This document shows, piece by piece, positions 2,758 to 64,000 of a DNA stretch of 64,000 nucleotides; position 1 is the stretch's first letter; each line of letters opens with the position of its first letter. The stretch comes from an uncultured Myxococcales bacterium (lineage in GTDB: Bacteria; Myxococcota_A; UBA9160; UBA4427), in assembly GCA_965603475.1 (NCBI GenBank), contig CBFDDD010000001.1, positions 111,157-175,156 on the forward strand, written 5' to 3'. A program made the translations under genes and the position numbers. Below the pieces are notes generated by a model. The model had not been told where the DNA came from, ran no database searches, and saw only the letters and a program-made list of their open reading frames with translations.

Positions 2758-3741
2758 TTACACGAAGTGCGGTAGGACGCGCTCTGTAAACATTTCGAAC
2801 GATTTGTCGCTGAGTGGGGAGAGAAGCAGATAGTCGAGCGGGACCTCCTCTTCGAGGTGCTGAAGAATATCGACGACGCGCTCTGGACTGCCATGGATGA
2901 TGACGTCATCCATATAGTGTTCGACGTGATCGGGGATCTTGTCGTCCGAACGAAAACTGGCCAACGCTTGCTTCGGAATGTAGCCCGCGGTCCATTTCGC
3001 ACCGCGCTCCGCGATCGCTGCTGCCTGGGCATCGGTTTCCGCGACGGCAACGAGTCTTGCGGTCGGGATGTCGCGCGGCCCGAGGTCGTGTCCCGCCTTC
3101 TCGAGACCGGCCCGGTAGTGGCCCAGCTTTTGTGCGATGTCGGAATGGGCCGAATGCGGATCCATCAAGATCGAGAAGCCGCGGCTGGCCGCCCACTCGA
3201 TCGCACCGAGCGAACTTGCGGCCACCCAGGCCGGAGGGTGGGGGCGTTGACGTGGCTTCGGAAGGACTTCGACGTCCTTGTAGCTGTGGAACTCGCCTTC
3301 GAATGTGAGGCGCTCGTTCGACCAGGCCGCCAGTACGATTTCGACGGCTTCGCGGAAGCGCGCGGTACTCTCGTCTGGCGACACACCGAAGACGGACATC
3401 TCCGTCGGATCGAAGCCTCGTCCAGCGCCCCAGTTGACCCGGCCGTCGGTCAGGACGTCCAGCAAAGCAACCTCTTCGGCGATGCGGAGTGGATGGTAGA
3501 ACGCCGCGAGTGTGACCGCGGTGCCGATTCGTAGCCGCTCGGTTCGAGAGGCGATATGCATGGCCATCAGATGCACGGAGGGGCAGACGCTGTAGCTGCT
3601 GAAATGATGCTCGGCCAACCAGACGGCGTCGTAACCCGTTTTATCCATGACCTCGATCCGGTTGAGCGCGCGGGTGTAGACGTCTTCGAGCGGGATGCTC
3701 CGATCTCGCCAACCAAAGAATTGAAGCAAGCCGATTTTCAT
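2758..3741 (-). CDS. LLM-class (luciferase-like) flavin-dependent oxidoreductase
   Basis: MKIGLLQFF...GYDAVWLAEHHFSSYSVCPS...RLRIGTAVTL is the family signature. GGAGGAGG RBS upstream of ATG 3741. Confidence 0.85.
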   Translation of the reverse strand: MKIGLLQFFGWRDRSIPLEDVYTRALNRIEVMDKTGYDAVWLAEHHFSSYSVCPSVHLMAMHIASRTERLRIGTAVTLAAFYHPLRIAEEVALLDVLTDGRVNWGAGRGFDPTEMSVFGVSPDESTARFREAVEIVLAAWSNERLTFEGEFHSYKDVEVLPKPRQRPHPPAWVAASSLGAIEWAASRGFSILMDPHSAHSDIAQKLGHYRAGLEKAGHDLGPRDIPTARLVAVAETDAQAAAIAERGAKWTAGYIPKQALASFRSDDKIPDHVEHYMDDVIIHGSPERVVDILQHLEEEVPLDYLLLSPLSDKSFEMFTERVLPHFV

Positions 3742-10622: not shown

Positions 10623-11435
10623 CTATCCAGAAGGAATATTGTGGTCGATCGAGTCGCTAGGCGTCGGTGACCCGATCGCGTAGATGCCCTGGAAGGGCGC
10701 ACCGGGTAGGTCGAGGCCTCCGATTTCCCATTGGTAGTCATTCGACGTGAGGTTCGCCGTCATCGCGCGGAGTTCGTCCTGGCTGTAGCAGCGCAGGCAC
10801 GAAACGAATCCATCCCAGAAAATGAAGAATGGAATGACCGGGACCAGGTAGGTCAGTGGAATCCAGCTCCAGCGAAACGGACGCAGAAACGGAACGAGCA
10901 GGAGTGCCATGAACGGTACGAAGAGCATGCTGAGCAGCGCAAGCGGGTGCCGCGCGACCGATTCGAAAATGGCGATGGATGCGCGATCCTCGACCGCATT
11001 CGCGAGAATCGCCGTGGCTTGTGCGGGGCGGAAATGGTGTAGACCGCTGAAGAGCGTTCGGAGCCCCTTCAGGTTGTCCGGGACGGCGGTGGCGTCGACC
11101 GGCTCGAATTCCGCACTGATGGTCGGGTTGTCTCTGGTGATGCGTTCGAAGGCGTTCTGGTTCGGGTAGAGATCGGTAAGGGTCGCTGTCACGGTAGGGC
11201 CTCCCTGGTTCGCGATGACGGCGAGAGCCGAAGGCAACGGCCCAGAGCCGCCCGAGCAGAGATCGACGATCTGGTCCTGATTGGCGCGTTGCAGCGCTCT
11301 CGCGAGCATGGGTGCCATCACGTCTCCGATGCGTGCGAGACGAGCCGCCAACTCGAGGTAGGCAGTCCCTGCATCGCGAATGACCCCGGGAAACCAGGGC
11401 TGGTCTTCTAACTCGAAGAGATGGAATCGACGCAT
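10623..11435 (-). CDS. SAM-dependent methyltransferase-like protein with C-terminal membrane segments
   Basis: HLFELEDQPWFP N-terminus. Motif-I-like IVDLCSGGSGP. Hydrophobic LLSMLFVPFMALLLVPFL and VPVIPFFIFW. GAGGA RBS. Confidence 0.6.
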   Translation of the reverse strand: MRRFHLFELEDQPWFPGVIRDAGTAYLELAARLARIGDVMAPMLARALQRANQDQIVDLCSGGSGPLPSALAVIANQGGPTVTATLTDLYPNQNAFERITRDNPTISAEFEPVDATAVPDNLKGLRTLFSGLHHFRPAQATAILANAVEDRASIAIFESVARHPLALLSMLFVPFMALLLVPFLRPFRWSWIPLTYLVPVIPFFIFWDGFVSCLRCYSQDELRAMTANLTSNDYQWEIGGLDLPGAPFQGIYAIGSPTPSDSIDHNIPSG

Positions 11436-23970: not shown

Positions 23971-25968
23971 ATGCATAATCGGCCGGTCGGATTGTTTCTT
24001 TTCAGTCTGCTGGCTTGTCTGGTGGGCTGCTCGCCGGCGGAGCTCCCGACGCCGGATCAGCCGGTCCGTTCCGTATCGGAATGGCCCGCTTATGGAGGCG
24101 ATCTCGGCGGGCAGCGCCACGCTGGAACCAGCGTCATTCGTCGAAACAACGTCGCCTCCCTCGGACATGCGTGGACCTATCGCCACGGAGACGTTTCGGG
24201 GAACGACGACGAAATTCCCAGCAGTACGGCCTTCGAGAACACGCCCATTCTCGTCGACGGCACGCTCTACTTCTGTACGCCCTTCAATCGCGTCATAGCG
24301 TTGGATCCGGTGTCGGGTACGGAGAAATGGGTTCACGATCCCGACATCGACATGACCGGCCGCTATGCCAATCAGCTCATCTGTCGTGGAGTGGCGGCGT
24401 GGTTGGATGAACAGTCCGGCCCCGAGTCGTCCTGTCAGCGCACGATCTTTACCGCAACGAACGACGCGCGACTGGTCGCGCTCGATGCCGGGACGGGCAA
24501 GCTCTGTCAGGCCTTCGGCACGAAGGGGGAGGTCGACCTCAACGCCGCTGCGGGTGAGCAAAAGTGGCAGGGTGAATATCAGGTGACCTCGCCGCCCGTC
24601 ATGGTCGGAGATGTCGTTGTGGTCGGCTCTGCTGTGAGCGACAACGCGAGAATCGATGCGCCGAGCGGCGTCGTTCGCGGTTTCGATGCGCGGAGTGGAC
24701 GCCTTCGATGGGCTTGGGACCTGGCTCCCCCCGACTTCGACTACGACAGCGGTCTTGTCAGCGATGCGGGCTACGCGCTGGGCACCCCGAACGTGTGGGC
24801 ACCGATGTCGGTGGACGCCGAGCGTGGGCTGGTCTTCGTTCCGACAGGAAACTCGGCACCGGACTACTACCACGGCGAGCGCAGCAATATGAACTACTAC
24901 GGAAGTTCAGTGGTGGCTCTTCGCGGTGAGAGCGGAGAGGTCGTTTGGCACTTCCAGACGGTGCACAACGATCTCTGGGACTTCGACGTTCCGGCGCAAC
25001 CTACGCTCACGAGCATCGAGATCGATGGTGAGTCACGCCCAGCTCTCGTGCAGGCGACGAAGATGGGGTTGCTCTTCGTGCTGGACCGCGAGACGGGAGA
25101 GCCGCTGCTGGAAGTCGAGGAGCGGCCGGTGACGACCGCGGGTGCCGTTCCGGGCGAAGTGCTTTCAAAGACCCAACCCTTTCCTGCGATCCCGATACTC
25201 GTTCGGGATCAGATCTCACCCGAAGATGCCTGGGGACTGACACCGTGGGACAAGGGCCAATGTCGCGAACTGATCGCGTCCCATCGATTCGACGGAATCT
25301 ACACACCGCCTTCGATCCAGGGCTCGATCATGTATCCGGGCAATGCGGGCGGCTCGAACTGGGGCGGCATCGCGGTTGATCCAGATCGTCAGCTGGCCTT
25401 CGTGAGGAGCTCCGACGTGCCTTGGATCGTTCGTCTCATTCCGCGGGCGGATTTCCAGGCCGAGCGCGAGGCCGATCCGAAGCATGAGTATGGGCCACAG
25501 ATCGGCACACCCTATGGGCTACGTCGTGACATGATGCTGTCCCCGCTCGGTTTGCCCTGCGTTGGACCTCCCTGGGGCACTTTGTCTGCGATTGACCTGC
25601 GCACGGGCGCGATTCGCTGGCAGGTCCCGCATGGAAGTCTCCGCGATCTCGCACCGATTCCGCTTCCTCTCGATTGGGGGATTCCGGGGATCGGGGGGCC
25701 GATCGTGACAGATACGAACATCGTATTCATCGCTGCCGCGATGGATGATTACCTTCGCGCCTTCGACGTGGAGACCGGCGACGAACTCTGGAAGGGGAGG
25801 TTGCCGGCTGGCGGCCAGGCGACCCCGATGAGTTACCGCGTCGAGTTTGAAGATGGCAGTGTCAGGCAGTACGTATTGATTGCGGCGGGTGGGCATTCGC
25901 GTGCCGGAACGCGAATGGGCGACCACCTCGTTGCGTTTGCACTCGACGAGAAGCCGTCTTCGGAATAG
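23971..25968 (+). CDS. PQQ-dependent dehydrogenase (glucose/quinate dehydrogenase family), lipoprotein
   Basis: Lipobox LLACLVGC. Propeller repeats: ENTPILVDGTLYFCTPFNRVIALDPVSGTEKW. GAGGAG RBS. Confidence 0.85.
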   Translation: MHNRPVGLFLFSLLACLVGCSPAELPTPDQPVRSVSEWPAYGGDLGGQRHAGTSVIRRNNVASLGHAWTYRHGDVSGNDDEIPSSTAFENTPILVDGTLYFCTPFNRVIALDPVSGTEKWVHDPDIDMTGRYANQLICRGVAAWLDEQSGPESSCQRTIFTATNDARLVALDAGTGKLCQAFGTKGEVDLNAAAGEQKWQGEYQVTSPPVMVGDVVVVGSAVSDNARIDAPSGVVRGFDARSGRLRWAWDLAPPDFDYDSGLVSDAGYALGTPNVWAPMSVDAERGLVFVPTGNSAPDYYHGERSNMNYYGSSVVALRGESGEVVWHFQTVHNDLWDFDVPAQPTLTSIEIDGESRPALVQATKMGLLFVLDRETGEPLLEVEERPVTTAGAVPGEVLSKTQPFPAIPILVRDQISPEDAWGLTPWDKGQCRELIASHRFDGIYTPPSIQGSIMYPGNAGGSNWGGIAVDPDRQLAFVRSSDVPWIVRLIPRADFQAEREADPKHEYGPQIGTPYGLRRDMMLSPLGLPCVGPPWGTLSAIDLRTGAIRWQVPHGSLRDLAPIPLPLDWGIPGIGGPIVTDTNIVFIAAAMDDYLRAFDVETGDELWKGRLPAGGQATPMSYRVEFEDGSVRQYVLIAAGGHSRAGTRMGDHLVAFALDEKPSSE

Positions 25969-31198: not shown

Positions 31199-31300
31199 GC
31201 AAATGCTCCGTGCCGCTTCGGGTCGGTCATGGAAGGTCGAGAGTCCTCGCGGCAGCTGGATGCTAGCGTTTCAGGGTTCCATGCTCGGGAGGAGAACCGA

Positions 31301-33181
31301 ATGATCAAAGGTTACGCGGGCCGCGTCCTCGAGATAGACCTGGCAACCCAGCGCTATTCGTTCCAGCCGCTCGACGAAGAGATCGCAAGACTCTACATCG
31401 GCGGCAAGGGCTACGGCACCCGGCTTCTCTACGATCGTACCGAGGCCGGTATCGATCCACTCGGCCCCGAGAATCCGCTGATCTTTGCGACCGGTCCACT
31501 GAATGGTTCCGTGGCGCCTCAGAGCAATCGGTTTGCGGTCGTCTGCAAGAGCCCTCTGACCGGTGGGATCGGCAATGCGACCTGCGGCGGAAACTACGCC
31601 TACGGCATGAAGCGAGCCGGGATCGACATCATCGTCGTCAGCAACCGGTCCGAGCGACCCGTTCGAATCGAAGTCAATGGGGATCGTGACGAGGTCGAGT
31701 TTCTCGACGCCGCGGATCTATGGGGCAAGGGCACCTACGAAACGCAGGAGATTCTCGGCAAGAAGAAAGCCCATGCTGTAATCGGTCCGGCCGGCGAGAA
31801 CCAGGTTCTCTTCGCCGGCATCGTTTCGAACGAGCGGATTGCGGGGCGCACGGGCGTCGGGGCCGTGATGGGATCGAAGCGATTGAAGGCCATCAGCGTG
31901 ACCGGGTCGCGCAAGCTCGAGATGGACGATCCCGAGGCGTTCAAGACGTATACCAAAGAAGTTCGCGAGATGTTCAAGGAACATCCGGTACTCGGAAGTT
32001 CGATGAAGCGCTTTGGGACCGCCGGTATCGTCAACACCACGAATGGGCGCGGCATGCTGCCCACGAAGAATTTTCAGCGCGGACATTTCGATGAGGCGAT
32101 GACGATCTCCGGTGAGTACATGGAGGACCATGAGCTGGTCGGAGTGAAGAGCAGCTGTCTGCACTGCCCTGTGACCTGTGGCCGGGATGTCGAGGTAGAC
32201 GGCAGGCGCGTCAAGGGTCCGGAATACGAAACGGTTGCGTTGATGGGGAGCAATCTCGAGATCGGAGACCTCAAGAAGGTTTCGGAGTGGAATTTCCTTG
32301 CGGATGACCTGGGGATGGACACGATCAGTCTCGGCGTGACGCTGAGCTTTGCGATGGAGCTGCAGGAGCGCGGCATGTTCGATGCGGGTGTTCGCTTTGG
32401 CGATGCCGAGGGCGTGAGCGAATTGATTCGAGATATCGGCCATCGACGTGGTGCAGGCAATGAACTCGCGGACGGCTCGAAAAGGATGAGCGAGCGAATC
32501 GGTGGTCATGAATTTGCCATGCACGTCAAGGGCCTCGAACTTTCGGCCTACGATCCACGAGGTTCCTTCGCCCAGGGTGTCGAATATGCGACAACCAATC
32601 GTGGAGGCTGCCATGTTCAAGGCGCGAGCATGTATCTCGAATCGATCGGTCCGCTCACGATCAATCCGCAGAACCTCAAGCTCAAGGCCGATATTCCAGT
32701 TCTGATGCAGAATACGGCGTGCGCGATCAACTCGATGGTGCTTTGCATCTTTACGACGTATGGAATGTTTCCTGCAGCCATTCACAACATGGATCCGAAA
32801 TCGCTGACGCACCGAATGATGTCGAAGGCCTTCGAGAATTCGGGCCCGATGATGCGAATGGCGATGGGCATGAAGGGCAAGCCGATACTCTGGTTCGAGA
32901 AATGGCTGACCTATATCACGGGGCAGACCTTCTCTTCGGGCCACCTGCAGGAGATCGGCGGTCGGATCTTCAATCTCGAGCGGATGTACAATCTGCGCGA
33001 GGGTTTGACTAGCAAGGACGATACGCTGCCTCCGCGCCTCCTGAATGAATCGATCTACGACAACATGGACGCCGGCCATCCCCTGGCAGAGCTGTTGCCC
33101 CGCTACTACAAGCTGCGAGGCTGGAACGCAGATGGGGTGCCGAACCGCGACACCCTGGACCGACTCCAGATCAGTATCTAA
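31301..33181 (+). CDS. aor: aldehyde:ferredoxin oxidoreductase (tungsto/molybdopterin AOR family)
   Basis: MIKGYAGRVLEIDL start. AOR N-domain. 4Fe-4S ligands CLHCPVTCGR (CxxCxxxC). The C-terminal LPPR...YYKLRGW is typical of AOR. Confidence 0.9.
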   Translation: MIKGYAGRVLEIDLATQRYSFQPLDEEIARLYIGGKGYGTRLLYDRTEAGIDPLGPENPLIFATGPLNGSVAPQSNRFAVVCKSPLTGGIGNATCGGNYAYGMKRAGIDIIVVSNRSERPVRIEVNGDRDEVEFLDAADLWGKGTYETQEILGKKKAHAVIGPAGENQVLFAGIVSNERIAGRTGVGAVMGSKRLKAISVTGSRKLEMDDPEAFKTYTKEVREMFKEHPVLGSSMKRFGTAGIVNTTNGRGMLPTKNFQRGHFDEAMTISGEYMEDHELVGVKSSCLHCPVTCGRDVEVDGRRVKGPEYETVALMGSNLEIGDLKKVSEWNFLADDLGMDTISLGVTLSFAMELQERGMFDAGVRFGDAEGVSELIRDIGHRRGAGNELADGSKRMSERIGGHEFAMHVKGLELSAYDPRGSFAQGVEYATTNRGGCHVQGASMYLESIGPLTINPQNLKLKADIPVLMQNTACAINSMVLCIFTTYGMFPAAIHNMDPKSLTHRMMSKAFENSGPMMRMAMGMKGKPILWFEKWLTYITGQTFSSGHLQEIGGRIFNLERMYNLREGLTSKDDTLPPRLLNESIYDNMDAGHPLAELLPRYYKLRGWNADGVPNRDTLDRLQISI

Positions 33182-33207: not shown

Positions 33208-33471
33208 ATGATGAGTATTCGGGTCGAGTTGACCTACGACATGAGCAAGGCTCTGGGCCTTCAGAGTTTCGACATCGATTCCGCGGCGACCGTGCGAGAC
33301 GTCGTGGAGCAGACCGAGACGCGCTTCGAACGGGGCGATGAATTCTCGAAGCTCGCTCGTCTCGCGGCGATCGCTGTCAACGGTGTACTGGTCAGCCACC
33401 GCAAGGGCATGAAGACCAGGTTGACGGATGGTGATCGAGTGGGGTTCGTGAAGGCTGCGGCCGGCGGATGA
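33208..33471 (+). CDS. MoaD/ThiS-family ubiquitin-like small protein
   Basis: 87 aa ending ...GDRVGFVKAAAGG (C-terminal GG). Lies immediately downstream of aor. Confidence 0.7.
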   Translation: MMSIRVELTYDMSKALGLQSFDIDSAATVRDVVEQTETRFERGDEFSKLARLAAIAVNGVLVSHRKGMKTRLTDGDRVGFVKAAAGG

Positions 33472-34184
33472 GCGATCAAACCGTGTCCAAACGAATCATC
33501 GTCGAGCCGAGCCCGACCGTCAGTCATGCCATCGAAACGCGGCGCTCGGTGCGGGCCTATCTGTCCGATCCGGTCCCCGAGGAGATCGTGCGCGAGATTC
33601 TCTCCTGTGCGAGTCGCGCCGCGTCTGGAGGAAACCTCCAGCCGTGGAAGGTGAGTGTGCTTGCGGGCGAGGTGCGTGATGCTTTCGTGAATACAGTCGC
33701 CGAGCGAATGAAAGAAACCCCTTTCGGCGAAGGCCAGGAGTATGCGATCTATCCTGCCGATCTGGAGGAGCCCTATCGAGGGCGTCGATTCAAGGTCGCG
33801 ATGGACATGTACGGTCTGGTTGGAATCGAGCGTGCCGACAAAGTGGCGCGGGCACAACAAATGGCGTTGAATTTTTCGTTCTTCGGCGCGCCGGTGGGCA
33901 TGTTCATCAGCATCGACCGCAAAATGGGGCCACCACAGTTTGCCGACCTGGGAATTTTTCTCCAGAACGTGATGCTCCTTGCGCGTGAGCGCGGACTGCA
34001 TACCTGCGCTCAGGAAGCTTGGTCGACCTGGGGGAAATCGATTCGAGAGTTCACGAGCATCGGAGAGGACGAGATGGTGTTTTGCGGCGTGGCTCTTGGC
34101 TATGCGGATCCCGACGCCGTGATCAATGATCTCTATACGGAACGTGCGTCGGTAGACGAGTTCGCTCAATTTCAAGGGTTCTGA
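33468..34184 (+). CDS. nitroreductase family flavoprotein
   Basis: RRSVRAYLSDPVPEEIVREIL...ASGGNLQPW pattern. ATGA overlap with the MoaD-like gene. Confidence 0.8.
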   Translation: MSDQTVSKRIIVEPSPTVSHAIETRRSVRAYLSDPVPEEIVREILSCASRAASGGNLQPWKVSVLAGEVRDAFVNTVAERMKETPFGEGQEYAIYPADLEEPYRGRRFKVAMDMYGLVGIERADKVARAQQMALNFSFFGAPVGMFISIDRKMGPPQFADLGIFLQNVMLLARERGLHTCAQEAWSTWGKSIREFTSIGEDEMVFCGVALGYADPDAVINDLYTERASVDEFAQFQGF

Positions 34185-34240
34185 CAAGTTCCAGAGGTTC
34201 TGACACGTTTCAGAAGTTCTGACAGCTCCAGAGGTTCTGA
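34170..34240. repeat. 4 tandem copies (period 19, 19, 18 bp) of YTYCARRRGTTCTGA, starting with the last codons and stop of the nitroreductase gene
   Basis: Copies start at 34170, 34189, 34208 and 34226: TTTCAAGGGTTCTGA / TTCCAGAGGTTCTGA / TTTCAGAAGTTCTGA / CTCCAGAGGTTCTGA. Confidence 0.9.
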
Positions 34241-39719: not shown

Positions 39720-42188
39720 GTGATGCCCGACGTCGATTTTCGATCCGAATCCAAGTCCAAGGTCATGGCCCCGCGTCATGAAGAGCCCGTCTGGCCGGAG
39801 ACGGCAGGCGGGGACGTCGTTTTCCTGATCGACGCAGCCAGTCGCTTCGAGACCAGACTCCTGCATGCCTGGATCGCGCGCCATCGTGCGGATTCCGCCG
39901 CTTCCGGCGCGAAGGTGGAGATCTTGACGCTTCCATCCTCACGTCGTCGACGTGGACGCCTGGATCCCGGATTGGAACCGATCCTGGCTTCGGGGGATGA
40001 TCCGCAGTTGGTGCCGCTGCGCATTGCGTGGCTCGCCCCCGAACGAGAGGGCCGCCGCGAAGTCAGGCCTTCGGACTTGTTGACCCTGGCGGATCCGCGA
40101 GATCCGGACCGACTCCGCGAGCGCTACCTCTATTGGCGGACGCCCGAACGTTGTCGGATCGTGTTGGGGCAGTCAGCACCTGTTTCGGCGGTGCGCAGGC
40201 GTTGGCGTCGGGCGGCTGGAGCGGATTCGGGTAACACGCAGAGCTTCCCCGACTACGTTGCGCGGCAGGCCGCGTTGACACTGGAGCGAGCCGAACGACA
40301 CATACGCGGTGCGCGCTACAAGGTGCCCAGCCTGGTTCGCGAGGACATCCTCGCGAGGCCCGCATTTCAGGGTGAGCTCCATCATCTGGCCCGCAAATTG
40401 GGTCGGACTGATGCGAGAGTGTTGGTTGAAGCGACAGCGGATCTTCGTGAGATCGCGGCTGGCCATACGCCGCTCGCGATCGACATCGTCGTCCGGCTCT
40501 GGCGCTTCATGTATTCCCGCGGCTACGACGAAAAGCTCCGTTACGATCCTGCCGAGCTACGAGTCGTGAGCGCGCTCGCGCAACAGCATCCGGTCGTTTT
40601 TCTGCCGTCACACAAATCAAACCTCGACCATGGCGTGCTGCAAACGATCCTGCACGAAAATGGCATGCCGCCCAATCATACGGCCGGCGGAATCAACATG
40701 AATTTCTTTCCGCTCGGACCGCTCGTGCGGCGGAGTGGGATCTTCTTCATTCGGCGTAGCTTCAAGGACGACGAGGTCTACAAGCTCGTCCTGCGTCACT
40801 ACGTCGACTATCTGATCTCGAAGCGTTTTCCTCTCGAGTGGTATATCGAAGGGGGTCGCTCCCGATCCGGCAAACTCCTGCCGCCGCGCTTCGGCTTGTT
40901 GGCGTACGTGGTCGATGCCTATCAGCGAGGGCATAGCGACGATGTCTATCTCGTGCCGGTCTCGATCTGTTACGACCAGATCTCCGATGTCTCCGACTAC
41001 GTCGCGGAGCAGCGCGGAGGCGACAAGGAGAGCGAGGGGTTTGGCTGGTTCGTTCGTTTCATTCGCAGGCTGGGGCGGCGTTACGGGCGGATCAATATTC
41101 GCTTCGGAGAGCCGGTCTCGCTGGCCACGTCGCTGGGGCCCCCGAATCCGGAGGCCTTGCCCGATCCGAACGAGATGAATGTCGAATTACAGAAGCTGGC
41201 TTTCGAAGTCTGTGTCCGAATCAATCGGGCTACGCCGATTACGCCGGTCTCGCTGATTTGCCTGGCCTTGTTGAGTCGGGGAGATCGCGCACTCACTCGA
41301 ACGGATATGGTCGATGCGCTCGTGAACCTGCGGGGCTACGTGGAGCGTCGTAAGCTTCCGACGTCGGAGGAACTCGACCTGGATACGGCCGAGGGTGTCG
41401 CGCGAACGATGGACGCGTTGGTCGAGAGCGGTCTACTGACGATCTACGACGAGGGCCCGGAACCCGTGTATGGAATTGCGTCGGGTCAGCATCTGGGCGC
41501 CGCCTACTACCGAAACACCATCATCCACTATTTCCTGACGGGCGCGATCGCCGAAGTTTCCCTGCTCCGTGCGGCCGAAAAGGACGTAGAGGACAGGTCG
41601 GCGGCGTTCTGGGAAGCGGCTCTGGACTTACGGGATCTCCTCAAGTTCGAGTTCTTCTTCGCAGAGAAGGACGTCTTCCAGGCGGAGATTCGTCGGGAGC
41701 TCAGCCATCACGTCGTGGACTGGGAGGCGCGACTCGACGAGGGCGCAGAGGCGATTCAGGAAATATTCATCCGCATCAGCCCACTCCACGCTCATCGAGT
41801 GCTTCGCCCCTTCCTCGAGGCCTACCGCGTGGTGGGCGATGTACTGGAATCTCACGACACGGGGGAACCGATCGACGAAGCGGCATTCCTTTCGGAATGC
41901 CTGGGACTCGGCCATCAGTACACGCTACAGCGCCACATCAAGCGACAAGAATCGGTTTCAAAGGTGCTCTTCGGGACTGCCGTCAAACTCGCGCGCAATC
42001 GCGAACTCTGGGAGCCTGGTGAGTCGAAACAGGAGCTGAAAGACGCACGCAGGCGCTTCGCAGTGGAGATACGTGCTGCGATCCGCCGTGTCGACGCCGT
42101 CGAGGCGATGGTTCGAGCGCGTCTAGCGGGTCTCGCCCCCCCGGCCGCATCGGTCGCGACGAGTCGGAAGAACCCGACGGACACCTGA
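39720..42188 (+). CDS. plsB: glycerol-3-phosphate 1-O-acyltransferase PlsB
   Basis: About 820 aa. Acyltransferase HX4D block VFLPSHKSNLDH, plus FFIRRSF and YIEGGRSRSGK motifs. Confidence 0.9.
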   Translation: MMPDVDFRSESKSKVMAPRHEEPVWPETAGGDVVFLIDAASRFETRLLHAWIARHRADSAASGAKVEILTLPSSRRRRGRLDPGLEPILASGDDPQLVPLRIAWLAPEREGRREVRPSDLLTLADPRDPDRLRERYLYWRTPERCRIVLGQSAPVSAVRRRWRRAAGADSGNTQSFPDYVARQAALTLERAERHIRGARYKVPSLVREDILARPAFQGELHHLARKLGRTDARVLVEATADLREIAAGHTPLAIDIVVRLWRFMYSRGYDEKLRYDPAELRVVSALAQQHPVVFLPSHKSNLDHGVLQTILHENGMPPNHTAGGINMNFFPLGPLVRRSGIFFIRRSFKDDEVYKLVLRHYVDYLISKRFPLEWYIEGGRSRSGKLLPPRFGLLAYVVDAYQRGHSDDVYLVPVSICYDQISDVSDYVAEQRGGDKESEGFGWFVRFIRRLGRRYGRINIRFGEPVSLATSLGPPNPEALPDPNEMNVELQKLAFEVCVRINRATPITPVSLICLALLSRGDRALTRTDMVDALVNLRGYVERRKLPTSEELDLDTAEGVARTMDALVESGLLTIYDEGPEPVYGIASGQHLGAAYYRNTIIHYFLTGAIAEVSLLRAAEKDVEDRSAAFWEAALDLRDLLKFEFFFAEKDVFQAEIRRELSHHVVDWEARLDEGAEAIQEIFIRISPLHAHRVLRPFLEAYRVVGDVLESHDTGEPIDEAAFLSECLGLGHQYTLQRHIKRQESVSKVLFGTAVKLARNRELWEPGESKQELKDARRRFAVEIRAAIRRVDAVEAMVRARLAGLAPPAASVATSRKNPTDT

Positions 42189-53535: not shown

Positions 53536-53730
53536 CTAGACTACGGTGATGTTCTCGGCGCGGGAGCCCTTGGGGCCCTGTCCGATTGTGAACTCGACCT
53601 GCTGGCCTTCGCGCAGATCTTCGTAGCGGACATCCTGGAGCGCAGACATGTGGAAGAAGATTTCTTCACCATCGCCCGCGATGAATCCAAAGCCCTTGTC
53701 CGTAAGTTTCTTGATTGTTCCTTGAGCCAC
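53536..53730 (-). CDS. CspA-family cold-shock protein
   Basis: (M)AQGTIKKLTDKGFGFIAGDGEEIFFHMSAL...: RNP1 KGFGFI and RNP2-like FFH. GTG start with GAAGGAGGG RBS. The longer track ORF upstream is its 5' UTR. Confidence 0.9.
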   Translation of the reverse strand: MAQGTIKKLTDKGFGFIAGDGEEIFFHMSALQDVRYEDLREGQQVEFTIGQGPKGSRAENITVV

Positions 53731-54178
53731 GTTGGCCCTCCTTCTGTGTAGTAAGAGACGTTCCACGGGACCGAACCTTTTTGGCCCGGCACTCGCGGAA
53801 GTTGGCAGTTCTCTGTTGAGCTGTGGTTCGAATTCCAGTCGCCGCGCAGATTCTGTCGTTGGGAAACTGTTTATAGCAGTTAGCGGACGATCGCGATCCC
53901 TCCGATCGAAACTCCTTCCATTCCGGCGTTGAGCGACGGCCGTGAGGAGCGCTCCAGGCGAGTTGATTGGCTTTGAGTGAGAGCAGGACGACACCCGAGG
54001 GGACGGCTTGGCACCGGTCGATCAATTTTCGACCCACAGTGGGGCTGGATCGAGTGGCTCGCCGCAAAATGAAATGGCTCGGCCCGATGGCTTACGAGCG
54101 TGACGCCCACCTCTGCGGAATTCAGGTACCCTCGTCGGGCAATTCAGTCCGTTCCGATCCCACACAGGAGAACGATCA

Positions 54179-54652
54179 ATGTCCAGCCTGCATGATTTCG
54201 AAGCGCCGTCGATCACGGGCGAGCCGATACGGCTCTCCGAGTTCGAAGGCCAGCTCTGCCTCGTCGTCAACGTCGCCAGCCGTTGAGGACTCACTGACCA
54301 GTACGCAGGTCTGCGTACCCTACACGACGACAACGATGGGCTCAGTGTTCTCGGCTTTCCCTGCAATCAGTTCGGTGCCCAGGAACCCGGAACCGACGCC
54401 GAAATTCTCGAGTTCGCCACTTCGAAATACGGGGCGAGTTTCCCGATGTTCTCGAAAATCGAGGTCAACGGCGACGGATCCAGTGAGATTTATCAGTTCC
54501 TCAAGGCGGGTCACCCCGACGAAGAGGGCAAGGAAGATATCGCCTGGAACTTCACTAAATTTCTGGTTGGGCGCGACGGGCAGGTGCTGCAGCGCTTTGC
54601 ACCACAGGTGACGCCCGAGGAGATCGGCGAGGCGGCGAAGGCTCATCTCTAG
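54179..54652 (+). CDS. gpx: glutathione peroxidase, selenocysteine form (Sec at codon 36)
   Basis: AGGAG RBS before ATG 54179. Reads ...LCLVVNVASR-U-GLTDQYAGL...LGFPCNQFGAQEPG...WNFTKFLVGRDG. The track lists only the C-terminal 68 aa (54446..54652). TGA 54284-54286 sits at the catalytic Cys/Sec position. Confidence 0.85.
54301..54318 (+). promoter_or_regulatory. putative bacterial SECIS hairpin for gpx
   Basis: GUACGCA-GGUC-UGCGUAC: 7-bp stem, GU in the loop, starting 14 nt after the UGA. Confidence 0.6.
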
Positions 54653-54715
54653 ACGATCGATCACTCGTCACTCATAAGAGAAGGATCGAGGATCCGTGTG
54701 ATCTTCAGCTGGTCC

Positions 54716-58434: not shown

Positions 58435-59070
58435 ATGCAGATCGCCCCAAGTGTGCCAGAAACCAGACCCCGAGAGGCTGTAGGTCGCCGAGAACGCAAG
58501 AAGCTCGAAACGCGTAGTGCACTGCATCGAGCGGCTCTCGATCTCTTCGCGAAGAATGGATTTCGCCATACCCGAATCAGCGAGATCGTGGATGTCGTCG
58601 ACGTGTCCGAGAGCACCTTCTTTCGATATTTCGACAGCAAGGAGGGCGTGGCGCTCGAAGGCATCCGTCAACGGGCCGAGGCGATCGTCGCCGCAGTCAG
58701 GGAGCGGCCCGTTTCGGAGTCGCCGATCGATGCCTGCCTTGCGGTGAATCGGAGCGATCAGTTGCCCGGCCATCGACTCCAGCAAGCAGATCTGCCCGGC
58801 CTGGAACTCTTCCGCAAGACTCCGGAGTTGGCCTCCCGGGCCCATCTCATGTTCAGCCAGATCGTTTCCGATCTGGCTCAGGATTTTGCACGCCGCCTCG
58901 GCAAGGATGCCTCGAGCCTCGAGGTTCGGTTGCAGGCCCATGCGGTCATCGCGGCATCGACCGTGGCCCTGGAAGTCTGGATCGAAGATCCCGCTGGGTC
59001 GGATCCCCAGAAGCTATCCGAGCAAGCGCTGATGAGGCTCCGTGATGGCCTTCAGTCGGATGTCGATTGA
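58435..59070 (+). CDS. TetR/AcrR family transcriptional regulator
   Basis: RERKKLETRSALHRAALDLFAKNGFRHTRISEIVDVVDVSESTFFRYF. Confidence 0.85.
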   Translation: MQIAPSVPETRPREAVGRRERKKLETRSALHRAALDLFAKNGFRHTRISEIVDVVDVSESTFFRYFDSKEGVALEGIRQRAEAIVAAVRERPVSESPIDACLAVNRSDQLPGHRLQQADLPGLELFRKTPELASRAHLMFSQIVSDLAQDFARRLGKDASSLEVRLQAHAVIAASTVALEVWIEDPAGSDPQKLSEQALMRLRDGLQSDVD

Positions 59071-60590
59071 TGTCGGAAGACGTGGACCTGAAAGACAGCG
59101 TAAAGGACATCGTCGTCGTCGGAGGAAGCATTGCTGGCCTGGCCGCCAGTCTGGCTCTTCGAGGCGCCGGCCATCGCGTACACATTATCGAGTCGGATTC
59201 GATCAGCGAAGAAAAAACCCCACTCGAAGCCTTCGAGCGCTGGGATCGTCGCGGTTCCCCCCAGGCCCGTCACACCCACGCCTTCCTGGCTCGGCTTCAT
59301 CAGCTCATCAAGCAACACGCGCCCGATCTTCTCGATCGCCTGCTGGAGGCGGGTGCCGAGGAACTCGAGTTCAAGGATCGAATTCCGCCGACGATCGAGA
59401 ATCCAGAGTTCATCGCGAGCGACGATGAGATTACGATGATTGCATGCCGTCGCATCACCTTCGAGTGGGTCCTGCGGCGCTATCTGTTCAACGACCTGGG
59501 CGTCACGAGCGAAGAGGGATCTGTCGTCACAGGTCTCATCCGAGATGAACGAAGCGGCCGAATACCGCGAGTCTGCGGAGTTCGCTATCGCGACGCCAAC
59601 GGGCTCGAGAAGACACGATCGGCCGATTTCGTGTTGGACGCGAGCGGTCGGCGTACGAAATGTGCGGATTGGTTGAAGGAGATCGGGTGTGCTGCTCCAC
59701 GAAAGGAGAGCGAACCTTGTGGGATCGTCTATTCATCGCGTTTCTATCGGCTGCAACCCAACGCGAAACAGCCGTTTACTTCGGGCTTTGCTGGCGGTGA
59801 CCTCGGATATCTGCGCTACGGCGTCTTTCCCTGCGATTCGGGCCTCTTCTCGCTGATCATCGCGGCGTCTCCCGAGGATCGCGGCATGCGCGCACTCAAG
59901 CAGAACGAAGGATTTGAAGCGGCTCTGCGCGTACTCCCCATGAGTCGCGAGTGGCTGGTGCCAGGCCTTTCAGAACCGATCGGTGACGTACACACGATGG
60001 CCGGGCTCAACAACGCACGGCGCCTGTTCATTGCGGATGGCGAACCACTGGCGCTGGGCTTTCAGCCGATTGGTGACGCCCTCTGTCATGCCAACCCACT
60101 ACTGGGTCGAGGCTGCACGTATGCCTTCATCCAGGCCTATCTGTTCACAGACGCGATGGCAGCGCATTCGAATGATTTGCGGGAGTTGGCCTTGTCCTTC
60201 GATCGCGGGGTGGAGGCAGAGATCATCCCTGGTTACGAATTCATTCGGACTGGCGATCGAAATTTCATTCGCAACGAACGCGTTGTCCGAGAAGGCCGGG
60301 ATCCGCTCGAAGTCGAACCGGAAACCGAGGAGGAAAAGCAGCAGATTTTTCTGGGACGCCTCGTGCGTGACGGTTTCGTGCCCGCCATGCAGACCGATAT
60401 CCATGTGTTACGTGCGTTCACCCGTGCAATGAACGTCCTCGAGCCCATGGAGAAGATGTTCAAGGACCCGGACATCATGGCCCGAGCCATGAAGGCCTAT
60501 GGGGAGAAGGAAACGCGAGAGAAACCTGTTCTTGGGCCGAGTCACGACGAGATGGTCGAGTTGCTCTTGAAGCAGGATGCGGCGCCCTGA
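59070..60590 (+). CDS. FAD-dependent oxidoreductase/monooxygenase
   Basis: Rossmann DIVVVGGSIAGLAASLALRGAGHRVHIIE. ATG overlaps the TetR TGA by 1 nt. Confidence 0.75.
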   Translation: MSEDVDLKDSVKDIVVVGGSIAGLAASLALRGAGHRVHIIESDSISEEKTPLEAFERWDRRGSPQARHTHAFLARLHQLIKQHAPDLLDRLLEAGAEELEFKDRIPPTIENPEFIASDDEITMIACRRITFEWVLRRYLFNDLGVTSEEGSVVTGLIRDERSGRIPRVCGVRYRDANGLEKTRSADFVLDASGRRTKCADWLKEIGCAAPRKESEPCGIVYSSRFYRLQPNAKQPFTSGFAGGDLGYLRYGVFPCDSGLFSLIIAASPEDRGMRALKQNEGFEAALRVLPMSREWLVPGLSEPIGDVHTMAGLNNARRLFIADGEPLALGFQPIGDALCHANPLLGRGCTYAFIQAYLFTDAMAAHSNDLRELALSFDRGVEAEIIPGYEFIRTGDRNFIRNERVVREGRDPLEVEPETEEEKQQIFLGRLVRDGFVPAMQTDIHVLRAFTRAMNVLEPMEKMFKDPDIMARAMKAYGEKETREKPVLGPSHDEMVELLLKQDAAP

Positions 60591-60659: not shown

Positions 60660-60710
60660 TGACTAATAGGCGTCGCTGACTAATAGGCATTGCTGACTAA
60701 TAGGAGTAGC
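60660..60710. repeat. 3 tandem 17-bp repeats TGACTAATAGG(N6), overlapping the stop of the TBDR remnant
   Basis: TGACTAATAGGCGTCGC / TGACTAATAGGCATTGC / TGACTAATAGGAGTAGC, read directly. Confidence 0.9.
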
Positions 60711-61243
60711 CGACTCGAAATCCGACGCTGCGCGGCTGGTCGATCGTGTGCACTCGATAGATCGACTGGAGGACTTCCTGGTTCGTCTTGGTTGACTCAT
60801 TTTCGAGATTGCGTGCGAAAATCTCGCCCCAGAATTGTTCGGTGATCGAGCTCCAGATGATCCGAACGTCCGTGCGCGTATAGGCGGGTGTCACGTCCTT
60901 GGAATTGCCATATTGCCGGAAGGCGATTTCGTCGCGGTAGTAGACGTCGACTCGCGGGGCGAGGCTTCCCCATCGACCGATGTCGAAGGTGTATTGCGCC
61001 CCGGCGGAGACCGTGAATCGAGGGCTGCGGGGCAATCGATTTCGATTCAAATTGACCTGCGCAACCCGGTCGGCGGGATTGAGCTGGCTGAAATCCTGGA
61101 TCGGTCTCGTCGGCCTCGAGTTCAAACGAATCAGGCTCTTCGCCTGCTGAGCCTTCGATCTGGGCCAATGCAGGAGGGACGGCCGATGCGATGATCGCCA
61201 GCTCGACGGCCAGCGTGACTCCCAGCGTGAAAAGGAGGCGCAT
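60697..61243 (-). pseudogene. decayed TonB-dependent receptor (signal peptide plus last ~130 aa of barrel, frame-disrupted)
   Basis: ATG 61243 gives signal peptide MRLLFTLGVTLAVELAIIASAVPPALAQ in one frame. The TBDR C-terminus NRLPRSPRFTVSAGAQYTF...VGFRVGYSY lies in another frame. The plug and most of the barrel are missing. Confidence 0.55.
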
Positions 61244-61591
61244 CGGCGGTCGTCGTATTCGATTCGTGTGATGGCTCTCTGGCGAGTTCTCCCCAAGGCT
61301 CTCTTCTGGTTCCAGAATTTCGTGATGGAGCGTGTAGAACATGCAAGTATTCTCCAGCTGTCCGATACTCTTGGAGCGAATTTCAAAATGCGATGGTGAA
61401 CTATTTCTGTTAACTAATATTTCGTATCGAAAATTTTGTAACGACACCAAAGATTTGCAGAACTATCTCGAAACCGGACCTGGCTTGCGCTATCGCGCGC
61501 AAGCGTGGCAGCGCTCACGCTATGGCATTATGCGATGCGACTAAGACTAACGGGGCTTCGGCTCGGGGTGGAGTGATGAGAAGGAGCCGAG

Positions 61592-62748: not shown

Positions 62749-64000
62749 TCAGTCGAGACCGCCCTGCCCAGCGTCCACGACGACAGGCTCGAGGCTTCGG
62801 TGTTCCTTCGGGATCCAGTCGTTCGATCCCTTGCGAATATTTGCGAAGACCAGCTCGGGCAGGCTGACGAAGGTCCCCCGTAGACCGCGAACCAGGATGT
62901 CTCCGCGATCGAGCGGAGCCGCCAGGACTCCGAGAACGCTCTCGCCCAACGCGGCCACCAGATTCACTGCCCCGAAAAGTGGACGCAGAAACGGGGTGTC
63001 ATCGGTGAAGAAGACGAAGAACGAATCATTCGCGTTTCGATGATAGGTCGTCGACGTGAAAGTGTTGGACTCCCGCAGTGCCACTCGAATCGGGCTCTCT
63101 CGGTTCTTCATTGTCTGCAAGCGCAATTGGCGGTACGAGAGGATCGTCTCTCGTTGGATGACTCGATAACGTCCGTTGACCTCTCGCGCCGACACGAAGG
63201 GAATGAAAGCCAGGCTGTATCGGCTGCCGACATAACCACCGAGTCGCTGTTCCGAAATTTCGACAGAGTTCTCGAAACTGTCGTTCAGGGTCTCGAAAAT
63301 CGCTGTTGCACAGTTCTGGCTGAAGAGGTCGTAGCGATGGAGCCGCCGCATAGCGCGCGAGTAGGACCGCTCCCGCTCTCGCGCGTGTTTCAGGTCTTCT
63401 GAGAGTTGTGAACCGGAGCGCTGTGGCCAGAGTGGAACCCGATAGGGCGCGGCGAGCGTGGGCACGAGATGGCCCTGCGCGACTCGAATCGAAGGCTGAC
63501 CGCGCAAGCCGCGCAGCATCTCGAAATAGCGATTGCTTCTCTCCTCCAATCGTTCCCATGCAAGCTCGTCCGGAGCGGCGGCGTTTCGGAAATAGGCGCG
63601 CGACGCCTCGAGCTGTTTCTGGTTCTCCGAAAGCATGATCCCTTCGACATCCCCATGTTGATCGATCTCGACATGACCGAGGTCTTCGGACTCTTCGGGA
63701 AAGGTGTCGAGGAAGACGAGGCGCCCGCTCGCGACGGATTGATTCAATGCCGATAGCCTCGCCATTCCGACCAGAAGTGTCTGGCCCCAATCCGGACGTC
63801 GGGAAGCAGCGAGCTCCACGAGCTGTCCGGTCAATTTCTTCGCATATCGCGCAAGCACCTGGATTTCTTCGGAGTCGAGCACGAAGGAGTCGTGGAGTGG
63901 AGCGTGATGAGTGGTGGTAGCGAGAGGACGCGCCTCCTCTAGCGTGTCGAGTGCCGCCAACCCGGCAGCCAGATCGACCCAGCGGTTCGAATAGGCCCGC
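62749..64000 (-). CDS. DUF4105/Lnb-N-terminal-like protein, 5' end beyond window
   Basis: The frame stays open to nt 64000. YDLFSQNCATAIFETLN resembles the DUF4105 core motif. Confidence 0.5.
   Translation of the reverse strand, partial: RAYSNRWVDLAAGLAALDTLEEARPLATTTHHAPLHDSFVLDSEEIQVLARYAKKLTGQLVELAASRRPDWGQTLLVGMARLSALNQSVASGRLVFLDTFPEESEDLGHVEIDQHGDVEGIMLSENQKQLEASRAYFRNAAAPDELAWERLEERSNRYFEMLRGLRGQPSIRVAQGHLVPTLAAPYRVPLWPQRSGSQLSEDLKHARERERSYSRAMRRLHRYDLFSQNCATAIFETLNDSFENSVEISEQRLGGYVGSRYSLAFIPFVSAREVNGRYRVIQRETILSYRQLRLQTMKNRESPIRVALRESNTFTSTTYHRNANDSFFVFFTDDTPFLRPLFGAVNLVAALGESVLGVLAAPLDRGDILVRGLRGTFVSLPELVFANIRKGSNDWIPKEHRSLEPVVVDAGQGGLD

Follow-up and report, generated by a model that had tools for sequence, protein, structure and literature searches.

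A probable selenocysteine glutathione peroxidase gene with a coding-region SECIS hairpin in an uncultured Myxococcales bacterium

The question raised by this locus is whether a TGA codon inside a glutathione peroxidase (GPx) frame is a true stop, or is read as selenocysteine (Sec). In the window, by which we mean the whole 64-kb stretch of DNA from an uncultured Myxococcales bacterium that was analysed, the mechanical list of open reading frames contains only a 68-aa C-terminal piece of this frame, which explains the shortened annotation track: since gene callers take UGA for a stop, the Sec-GPx appears as a 68-aa fragment. Comparison with related loci leads us to propose that 54179-54652 is, with high probability, a functional gene for a Sec-GPx, apparently of the monomer type, with Sec as the peroxidatic residue. 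The features needed for the argument are these:

54166-54170, plus strand: Shine-Dalgarno-like AGGAG, 8 nt 5' of ATG 54179, read from the sequence
54179-54652, plus strand: full Sec-GPx coding sequence, 157 codons including UGA as Sec36, with the TAG stop at 54650-54652
54284-54286, plus strand: in-frame UGA, the putative peroxidatic residue U36, in the motif NVASR-U-GLT (UxxT)
54301-54318, plus strand: predicted bacterial SECIS hairpin, 7-bp stem of 54301-54307 with 54312-54318, GGUC loop at 54308-54311
54356-54391, plus strand: FPCNQFGAQEPG block, residues 60-71, including Gln68 of the catalytic tetrad (54380-54382)
54416-54418, plus strand: Ala80, at the site of the resolving Cys in Cys-type GPx ('F-C' of the Cys block)
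54446-54652, plus strand: 68-aa ORF from standard calling, the C-terminal part of the GPx frame from internal Met90
54545-54568, plus strand: WNFTKFLV block, residues 123-130, with Trp123 and Asn124 of the catalytic tetrad

Read through the TGA, the frame runs in the order MSSLHDFEAPSITGEPIRLSEFEGQLCLVVNVASR-TGA-GLTDQYAGLRTLHDD...WNFTKFLVGRDGQVLQRF...AHL and then reaches TAG 54650-54652, and the 157 codons contain this single in-frame TGA and no further stops or frameshifts. The start at ATG 54179 is supported by homologues, 100 of the 113 Sec forms having Met at alignment position 1. What a preliminary description of this DNA had stated on the AGGAG, the ATG, the TGA, the hairpin and the 68-aa ORF all matches the sequence. 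The practical consequence is a correction of annotation, as the gene of an antioxidant enzyme is now represented by the 68-aa fragment alone.

For profile searches we used the translation with Cys in place of the TGA. It matches Pfam PF00255 (GSHPx) with 127.5 bits (cutoff 27, E = 2e-37) over the entire profile, positions 1-108 of 108. GPx structures in the PDB match with E-values of 5e-40 to 1e-33 over residues 2-149; poplar GPx5 (2p5q, 7e-40) and yeast Hyr1 (3cmi, 2e-37) are among the best, Schistosoma GPx is also found, and human GPx4 is matched by phmmer at E ~1e-33 to 1e-34 over residues 3-147. Monomeric GPx4 and GPx5 align end to end with the 157-aa chain, while tetrameric GPx1 aligns partially, over residues 1-113. 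In an alignment of the window protein with 160 relatives and human GPX4, the tetrad U36/Q68/W123/N124 falls on U46/Q81/W136/N137 of GPX4. Gln68 is invariant in all 161 of 161 aligned sequences, and the WNFTKFLV block with Trp123 and Asn124 is invariant except in one truncated sequence. The TGA at 54284-54286 falls in the column where 48 Cys forms have their catalytic Cys and human GPX4 has its Sec. Both the assignment to the GPx family and the placing of the TGA at the peroxidatic Cys/Sec site, as originally described from the signature blocks, are thus borne out, with blocks and tetrad intact. The comparison with BtuE-type enzymes made at the same time stands in part. The fold and the signature blocks are shared, but identity as a BtuE equivalog is rejected, as the score for NCBIfam NF007900 is 165.4 bits against a cutoff of 270 and the resolving Cys is absent. 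The protein also scores below the cutoff of TIGR02540 (gpx7), with 128 bits against 207.

The decisive evidence on the TGA comes from orthologues, a comparison that the preliminary description had proposed as a check. As relatives we took the best 80 loci from species-representative genomes and the best 80 from metagenomes. TGA is found at the catalytic codon in 59 of the 80 best genome loci (58 by regular expression, with L016 added by eye) and in 54 of the 80 best metagenome loci, or 113 of 160 together. Most carriers belong to the Acidimicrobiia (Ilumatobacteraceae and relatives) or to the Gammaproteobacteria, the latter comprising Pseudomonadales (in the GTDB sense), OM182, Halioglobus and Azotimanducaceae; the TGA also occurs in Myxococcota and in a single cultured isolate, Salinilacustrithrix flava. 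The nearest relatives among the best loci, L137 (89% aa identity over the part present) and L081 (84% aa identity), have the TGA, an identical hairpin and the same architecture as the window gene. L137 is syntenic with the window (PhyH-CSD-GPx) and yet only 76-85% identical to it in DNA, so that it must come from an independent, diverged organism, and neither an error of sequencing nor an inactivating mutation of recent date can account for the TGA. In the alignment of Sec forms the amino acids are kept on both sides of the TGA while codons vary synonymously, and purifying selection acts on the ORF before as well as after the TGA. Such conservation of residues with synonymous codon change on either side points to the two halves being translated as one frame.

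The second line of evidence is the RNA hairpin GUACGCA-GGUC-UGCGUAC, a perfect 7-bp stem that begins 14 nt after the TGA. In the published bSECIS model the apical loop has 3-9 nt, the upper stem 4-16 bp and the first two loop positions have G, with a distance from UGA to the apical loop of 16-37 nt and a minimum free energy (MFE) of at most -7.5 kcal/mol (PMC13188914). The hairpin in the window agrees with the model on every count, having a loop of 4 nt with G at positions 1 and 2, a stem of 7 bp, the loop 21 nt past the UGA and an MFE of -9.5 kcal/mol. The stability of the 18-nt hairpin alone is unusual (z = -3.2, equalled by 2 of 200 shuffles). For the 62 nt that follow the UGA the folding energy is unremarkable (z = +0.5), and a lower stem that would take in the UGA is predicted but lacks conservation. 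The significant structure is the 18-nt hairpin only and no longer fold. Described initially by its position and pairing, the hairpin thus fits the published SECIS model, and the codon data below add selection at the RNA level. Rfam families, the models SECIS_1 to SECIS_5 included, gave no match in the whole window at the gathering threshold, and no match at E <= 10 in 54150-54700. Typical SECIS elements of bacteria are reportedly not well captured by the Rfam models (bioRxiv 10.64898/2026.04.03.716425), and the missing match is therefore not evidence against a bSECIS.

How strongly is this hairpin conserved as RNA rather than as peptide? Among 56 different sequences of the TGA form, pairing is kept in 98.7% of pair cells. 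Changes in the stem that keep the structure include 14 cases of U:A to U:G, a C:G to U:A in L083, and a G:C to A:U in four sequences, achieved by the paired nonsynonymous changes of Ala43 to Thr and Arg46 to Cys. In Sec forms, codon entropy is 0-0.45 bits over codons +5 to +10 (alignment columns 16-35) against 1.4-2.3 bits, in the same sequences, at the fourfold and sixfold codons immediately flanking the hairpin. The hairpin codons of Cys forms vary normally (0.9-1.8 bits). The edges of the frozen zone coincide with the borders of the hairpin, the third bases of codons +4 and +11 being free to vary. Judged by this codon pattern, the putative SECIS is maintained by selection on RNA. Strict covariation statistics are weak because the hairpin is nearly invariant: covariation is sparse, with one pair changing on both sides (A1 alignment), and the measure 'pairs changed on both sides' is matched by 163 of 500 shuffles. 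The hairpin also appears to be visible in the protein. The 3' arm includes the CGU codon of Arg46, a residue that 100 of 113 Sec forms share and that is replaced by Glu or Gln in 44 of 48 Cys forms. The peptide QYAGLR(T/A) (54305-54318, codons 43-47) probably reflects, in large part, the demands of the RNA fold.

With this element in place, decoding would proceed as follows. The hairpin 54301-54318 would form in the mRNA just 3' of UGA 54284-54286 during translation, the Sec-specific elongation factor SelB, loaded with Sec-tRNA(Sec), would bind the GGUC apical loop, and Sec would be delivered at the UGA in competition with release factor 2, translation then running on to TAG 54650. The closest comparison is the SECIS of E. 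coli fdhF, likewise a coding-region stem-loop right after the UGA, with an apex GCAGGUCUGC (GCA-GGUC-UGC) identical to that of the window hairpin. The fdhF SECIS sequence was confirmed at 100% identity within fdhF of 5,419 E. coli genomes. In fdhF, SelB contacts G23 and U24 of the GGUC loop. The window hairpin differs in that its loop is one codon (3 nt) farther from the UGA (+25 to +28 versus +22 to +25), its 7-bp stem is perfect and has no counterpart of the bulged U17 of fdhF, and its predicted stability is higher (-9.5 kcal/mol versus -5.7 kcal/mol for the fdhF minihelix). As the SECIS of the clade is nearly invariant and fdhF-like, recombinant expression in E. coli may work without re-engineering. 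A search of the window for the fdhF-like apex CGCAGGTCTGCG with at most one mismatch found the GPx site only; such an apex is expected 0.77 times by chance and occurs at least once in 49 of 100 shuffles, so that a single hit is not in itself above chance.

Could the TGA nevertheless be a true stop in a pseudogene or split gene, with at most a 35-aa N-terminal peptide or the 68-aa fragment from Met90 being made? This reading agrees with standard calling, which yields the 68-aa fragment only, and with the content of the window, where no selA, selB or selD domains were found in 40 scanned ORFs and where the tRNA scan returned 0 tRNAs and hence no tRNA-Sec. However, it would leave the same TGA in 113 of the 160 best related loci from several phyla without a reason, together with two halves that both keep their amino acids despite synonymous variation, an invariant tetrad and 157 codons free of any other stop or frameshift. 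A pseudogene would also not maintain an RNA-selected hairpin after its TGA. We regard this reading as highly improbable, and the comparative data, taken as they stand, effectively refute it.

When a neighbour-joining tree was computed after masking of the catalytic column, the Sec forms fell into one contiguous clade, within which four Cys forms are nested, three of the four also being without Cys80. The window GPx groups with the gammaproteobacterial members. The hairpin is lost in three of the nested Cys forms: its stability is -0.4 kcal/mol in L102, -2.1 kcal/mol in the Cys copy of L035 and -4.6 kcal/mol in L028. This is what relaxed constraint predicts after a change from UGA to UGY.

Two of these loci deserve a separate description. 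At L102:4106-4150 (LXNI01000048.1) the Cys form has TGT and a local protein sequence nearly the same as that of the Sec form L013:3106-3150, with a decayed hairpin, CAATACGCAGGTCTTTGTAC, of -0.4 kcal/mol. L102 looks like a recent reversion from Sec to Cys, and L028 shows the same pattern. An Ilumatobacteraceae MAG (L035:3001-3950, JBEBGL010000007.1) contains a tandem pair of GPx genes, of which the first is a Cys form (TGC at 3106) without the resolving Cys and without the hairpin and the second, directly after it, is a Sec form (TGA at 3573) with a full SECIS hairpin. They could be a duplicated pair, perhaps with the Cys copy as backup at low selenium.

There is also a small chance that the UGA is read through without Sec, by near-cognate insertion of Trp or Cys or by SelB-delivered Cys at low selenium, so that the enzyme would be mostly a non-Sec GPx in vivo. 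Low-level UGA suppression is known in other systems, as is Cys insertion at Sec codons under selenium limitation, and the switch of three clade members to Cys codons (L028, L102 and the L035 Cys copy) indicates that a Cys version appears viable. However, suppression independent of a SECIS would not select for the hairpin, and an enzyme with Trp as its peroxidatic residue would be inactive. That TGA rather than TGC has been kept over the long term across phyla also argues that Sec itself is selected. Insertion of Sec as the normal outcome is in our view much the better explanation, and read-through without it is very unlikely.

The Sec clade is set apart from the Cys forms by a further residue. 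Position 80 is Cys in 45 of 48 Cys forms and in none of the 113 Sec forms (Ala in 100, Val in 13), and human GPX4 also has Ala in this column. By the 2-Cys GPx criterion the window protein is not of that type, as it has Ala80 where the resolving Cys is expected. This distribution also bears on the idea that the true codon is TGC or TGT, and that a sequencing or assembly error has turned an ordinary Cys-GPx into an apparent Sec form. Such an error would take a single base (A versus C or T). Against it, the independent assemblies of L137 and L081 carry the TGA and the identical hairpin, and the window gene has the other traits of a Sec form (the full hairpin, Arg46 and Ala80), whereas genuine Cys forms are without the hairpin and 45 of 48 of them have Cys80. 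An error at this base is hardly credible. A reassigned genetic code is rejected, since TGA is the usual stop of other genes in the window, ending ordinary ones for example at 42186 and 2705.

With Sec at position 36 the catalytic cycle would probably differ from that of the Cys enzymes. Within the GPx family, Sec-GPx are recycled by glutathione (GSH) and Cys-GPx by thioredoxin via the resolving Cys. E. coli BtuE, yeast Gpx3/Hyr1 and poplar GPx5 have the fold and the signature blocks in common with the window protein, but they use a peroxidatic and a resolving Cys and are recycled by thioredoxin, while the window protein has the predicted Sec36 together with Ala80. Since Cys80 is absent from all Sec forms, the use of Sec appears to accompany the loss of canonical 2-Cys recycling, which suggests for the Sec clade a GPx4-like mechanism without a resolving Cys. 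Sec36 would reduce hydroperoxides with the help of Gln68, Trp123 and Asn124, and the likeliest cycle would lead from the selenol to the selenenic acid, then to a selenenylsulfide with an external thiol and back to the selenol. As the Sec forms lack the resolving Cys, the selenenic acid would most likely be recycled directly by external thiols, that is by glutathione or by another low-molecular-weight or protein thiol, as in GPx4. The correlation between Sec and the missing resolving Cys thus predicts a recycling chemistry unlike that of BtuE or Gpx3-type enzymes. The faster catalysis that the preliminary description expected of a Sec form would accord with the general chemistry of selenoenzymes. 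Mammalian GPx4 resembles the window protein in its peroxidatic Sec, the same Gln/Trp/Asn tetrad, Ala at the resolving site and the short chain, which in the window protein is probably of the monomer type as well. It differs in having a eukaryotic 3'-UTR SECIS with SBP2/eEFSec instead of a coding-region hairpin with SelB; its substrate is phospholipid hydroperoxides, and the relationship is at the level of the family, the window protein not being an orthologue.

Another column of the alignment also separates the two groups. Residue 102 (54482-54484 in the window, Ser there) is Cys in 72 of 113 Sec forms and in 3 of 48 Cys forms, which usually have His at this position. In those members of the Sec clade that have it (~64%), Cys102 could act as a resolving thiol in place of Cys80.

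How new is such a protein? Bacterial Sec-GPx have been described as a family since 2004-2005 (PMC1088965, PMC1794560, PMC13188914). A Sec-GPx was reported in Treponema denticola (PMC1794560), the Sargasso Sea set contained five Sec-GPx sequences that have the UxxT motif together with a bacterial SECIS (PMC1088965), and in reviews of 2022 and 2026 the GPX-like selenoproteins of prokaryotes are 'predicted with high confidence' (PMC9312934, PMC13188914), the later one still not counting them among the verified ones. The window protein shares with these selenoproteins (T. denticola Gpx WP_010957027.1 and those of the Sargasso Sea and GOS sets) the PF00255 family and the sequence U-G-L-T, which fits the UxxT redox motif known from GPx selenoproteins of bacteria (PMC1088965, PMC13188914). 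They likewise have UGA at the peroxidatic site and a coding-region SECIS just 3' of it, and their Cys homologues are far commoner. We find no difference in kind from any of them, T. denticola Gpx being likened by description. The statement in the preliminary description that a Sec form is comparatively unusual is correct across all bacterial GPx, where the GOS survey counted 40 Sec against 3,287 Cys forms (PMC2398784), but not within the protein's own clade, where Sec is the norm. The predicted protein is, in short, a member of a known selenoprotein family that is rare among bacterial GPx and the norm in its own clade. The clade described here is much larger and taxonomically broader than the handful of the early papers, with more than 110 loci, mainly in Acidimicrobiia and Gammaproteobacteria, and Sec-GPx is the dominant form in this large clade from environmental members of these two groups. 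Three points go somewhat beyond the cited literature: the perfect correlation between Sec and the absence of the resolving Cys, the near-invariant fdhF-like SECIS across phyla, and the decay of the SECIS in nested Cys forms. The current understanding of selenoproteins is not overturned by any of this.

A more far-reaching interpretation, which we offer tentatively and consider rather less probable than its negation, is that the Sec clade represents a distinct class of GPx in which the 2-Cys thioredoxin cycle was swapped for a GPx4-like Sec cycle, and that this class moved as a unit among Acidimicrobiia, Gammaproteobacteria and Myxococcota, together with a near-invariant fdhF-like SECIS read by the SelB of unrelated phyla. 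If this were true, hosts with and without glutathione synthesis would have to use different reductants, and the near-universal GGUC minihelix would be a portable cassette for Sec insertion.

The presence of a Sec-GPx gene implies that the host decodes selenocysteine. No tRNA-Sec lies beside the GPx gene in the 58 Sec loci scanned, and clustering of the genes flanking the Sec loci revealed neither a universal operon partner nor a linked sel gene. When the window was scanned for other pairs of ORFs split by TGA and followed by hairpins, no second selenoprotein candidate stood out, the off-frame high-GC3 noise being heavy. A scan for promoter consensus sequences 5' of the GPx gene gave no match. 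Standing alone, the GPx gene is flanked upstream by a divergent cold-shock-domain gene and downstream by a convergent short-chain dehydrogenase (SDR) gene. The window has a G+C content of ~60% and also encodes outer-membrane proteins and a PlsB-type acyltransferase. Together with the grouping of the GPx, these traits would by themselves make a gammaproteobacterial host probable.

Several other genes in the window are worth recording. The cold-shock-domain ORF next to the GPx gene (53536-53994, minus strand) has 152 aa by the mechanical call, with the domain itself confined to residues 91-151, and L137 conserves residues 48-152 of it; possible reasons are a genuine extension at the N-terminus and a true start that is internal. 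Four ORFs with coding-like GC3 match no Pfam family at E <= 1e-5: 59067-60590 (plus strand, 507 aa), 62749-63960 (minus strand, 403 aa), 33261-34187 (minus strand, 308 aa) and 10623-11435 (minus strand, 270 aa). The ORF at 60697-61386 (minus strand, 229 aa) matches only the C-terminal end of the beta-barrel of TonB-dependent receptors (profile positions 355-421 of 436), perhaps because the receptor gene is truncated or frameshifted or because its start was mis-called. A full-length aldehyde:ferredoxin oxidoreductase is encoded at 31229-33181 (plus strand; AFOR_N 403 bits, AFOR_C 245 bits). Enzymes of this kind typically depend on tungsten or molybdenum and are found mostly in anaerobes. The rest of the window looks like DNA of an aerobic heterotroph: it encodes a PQQ dehydrogenase (23971-25968) as well as many acyl-CoA dehydrogenases.
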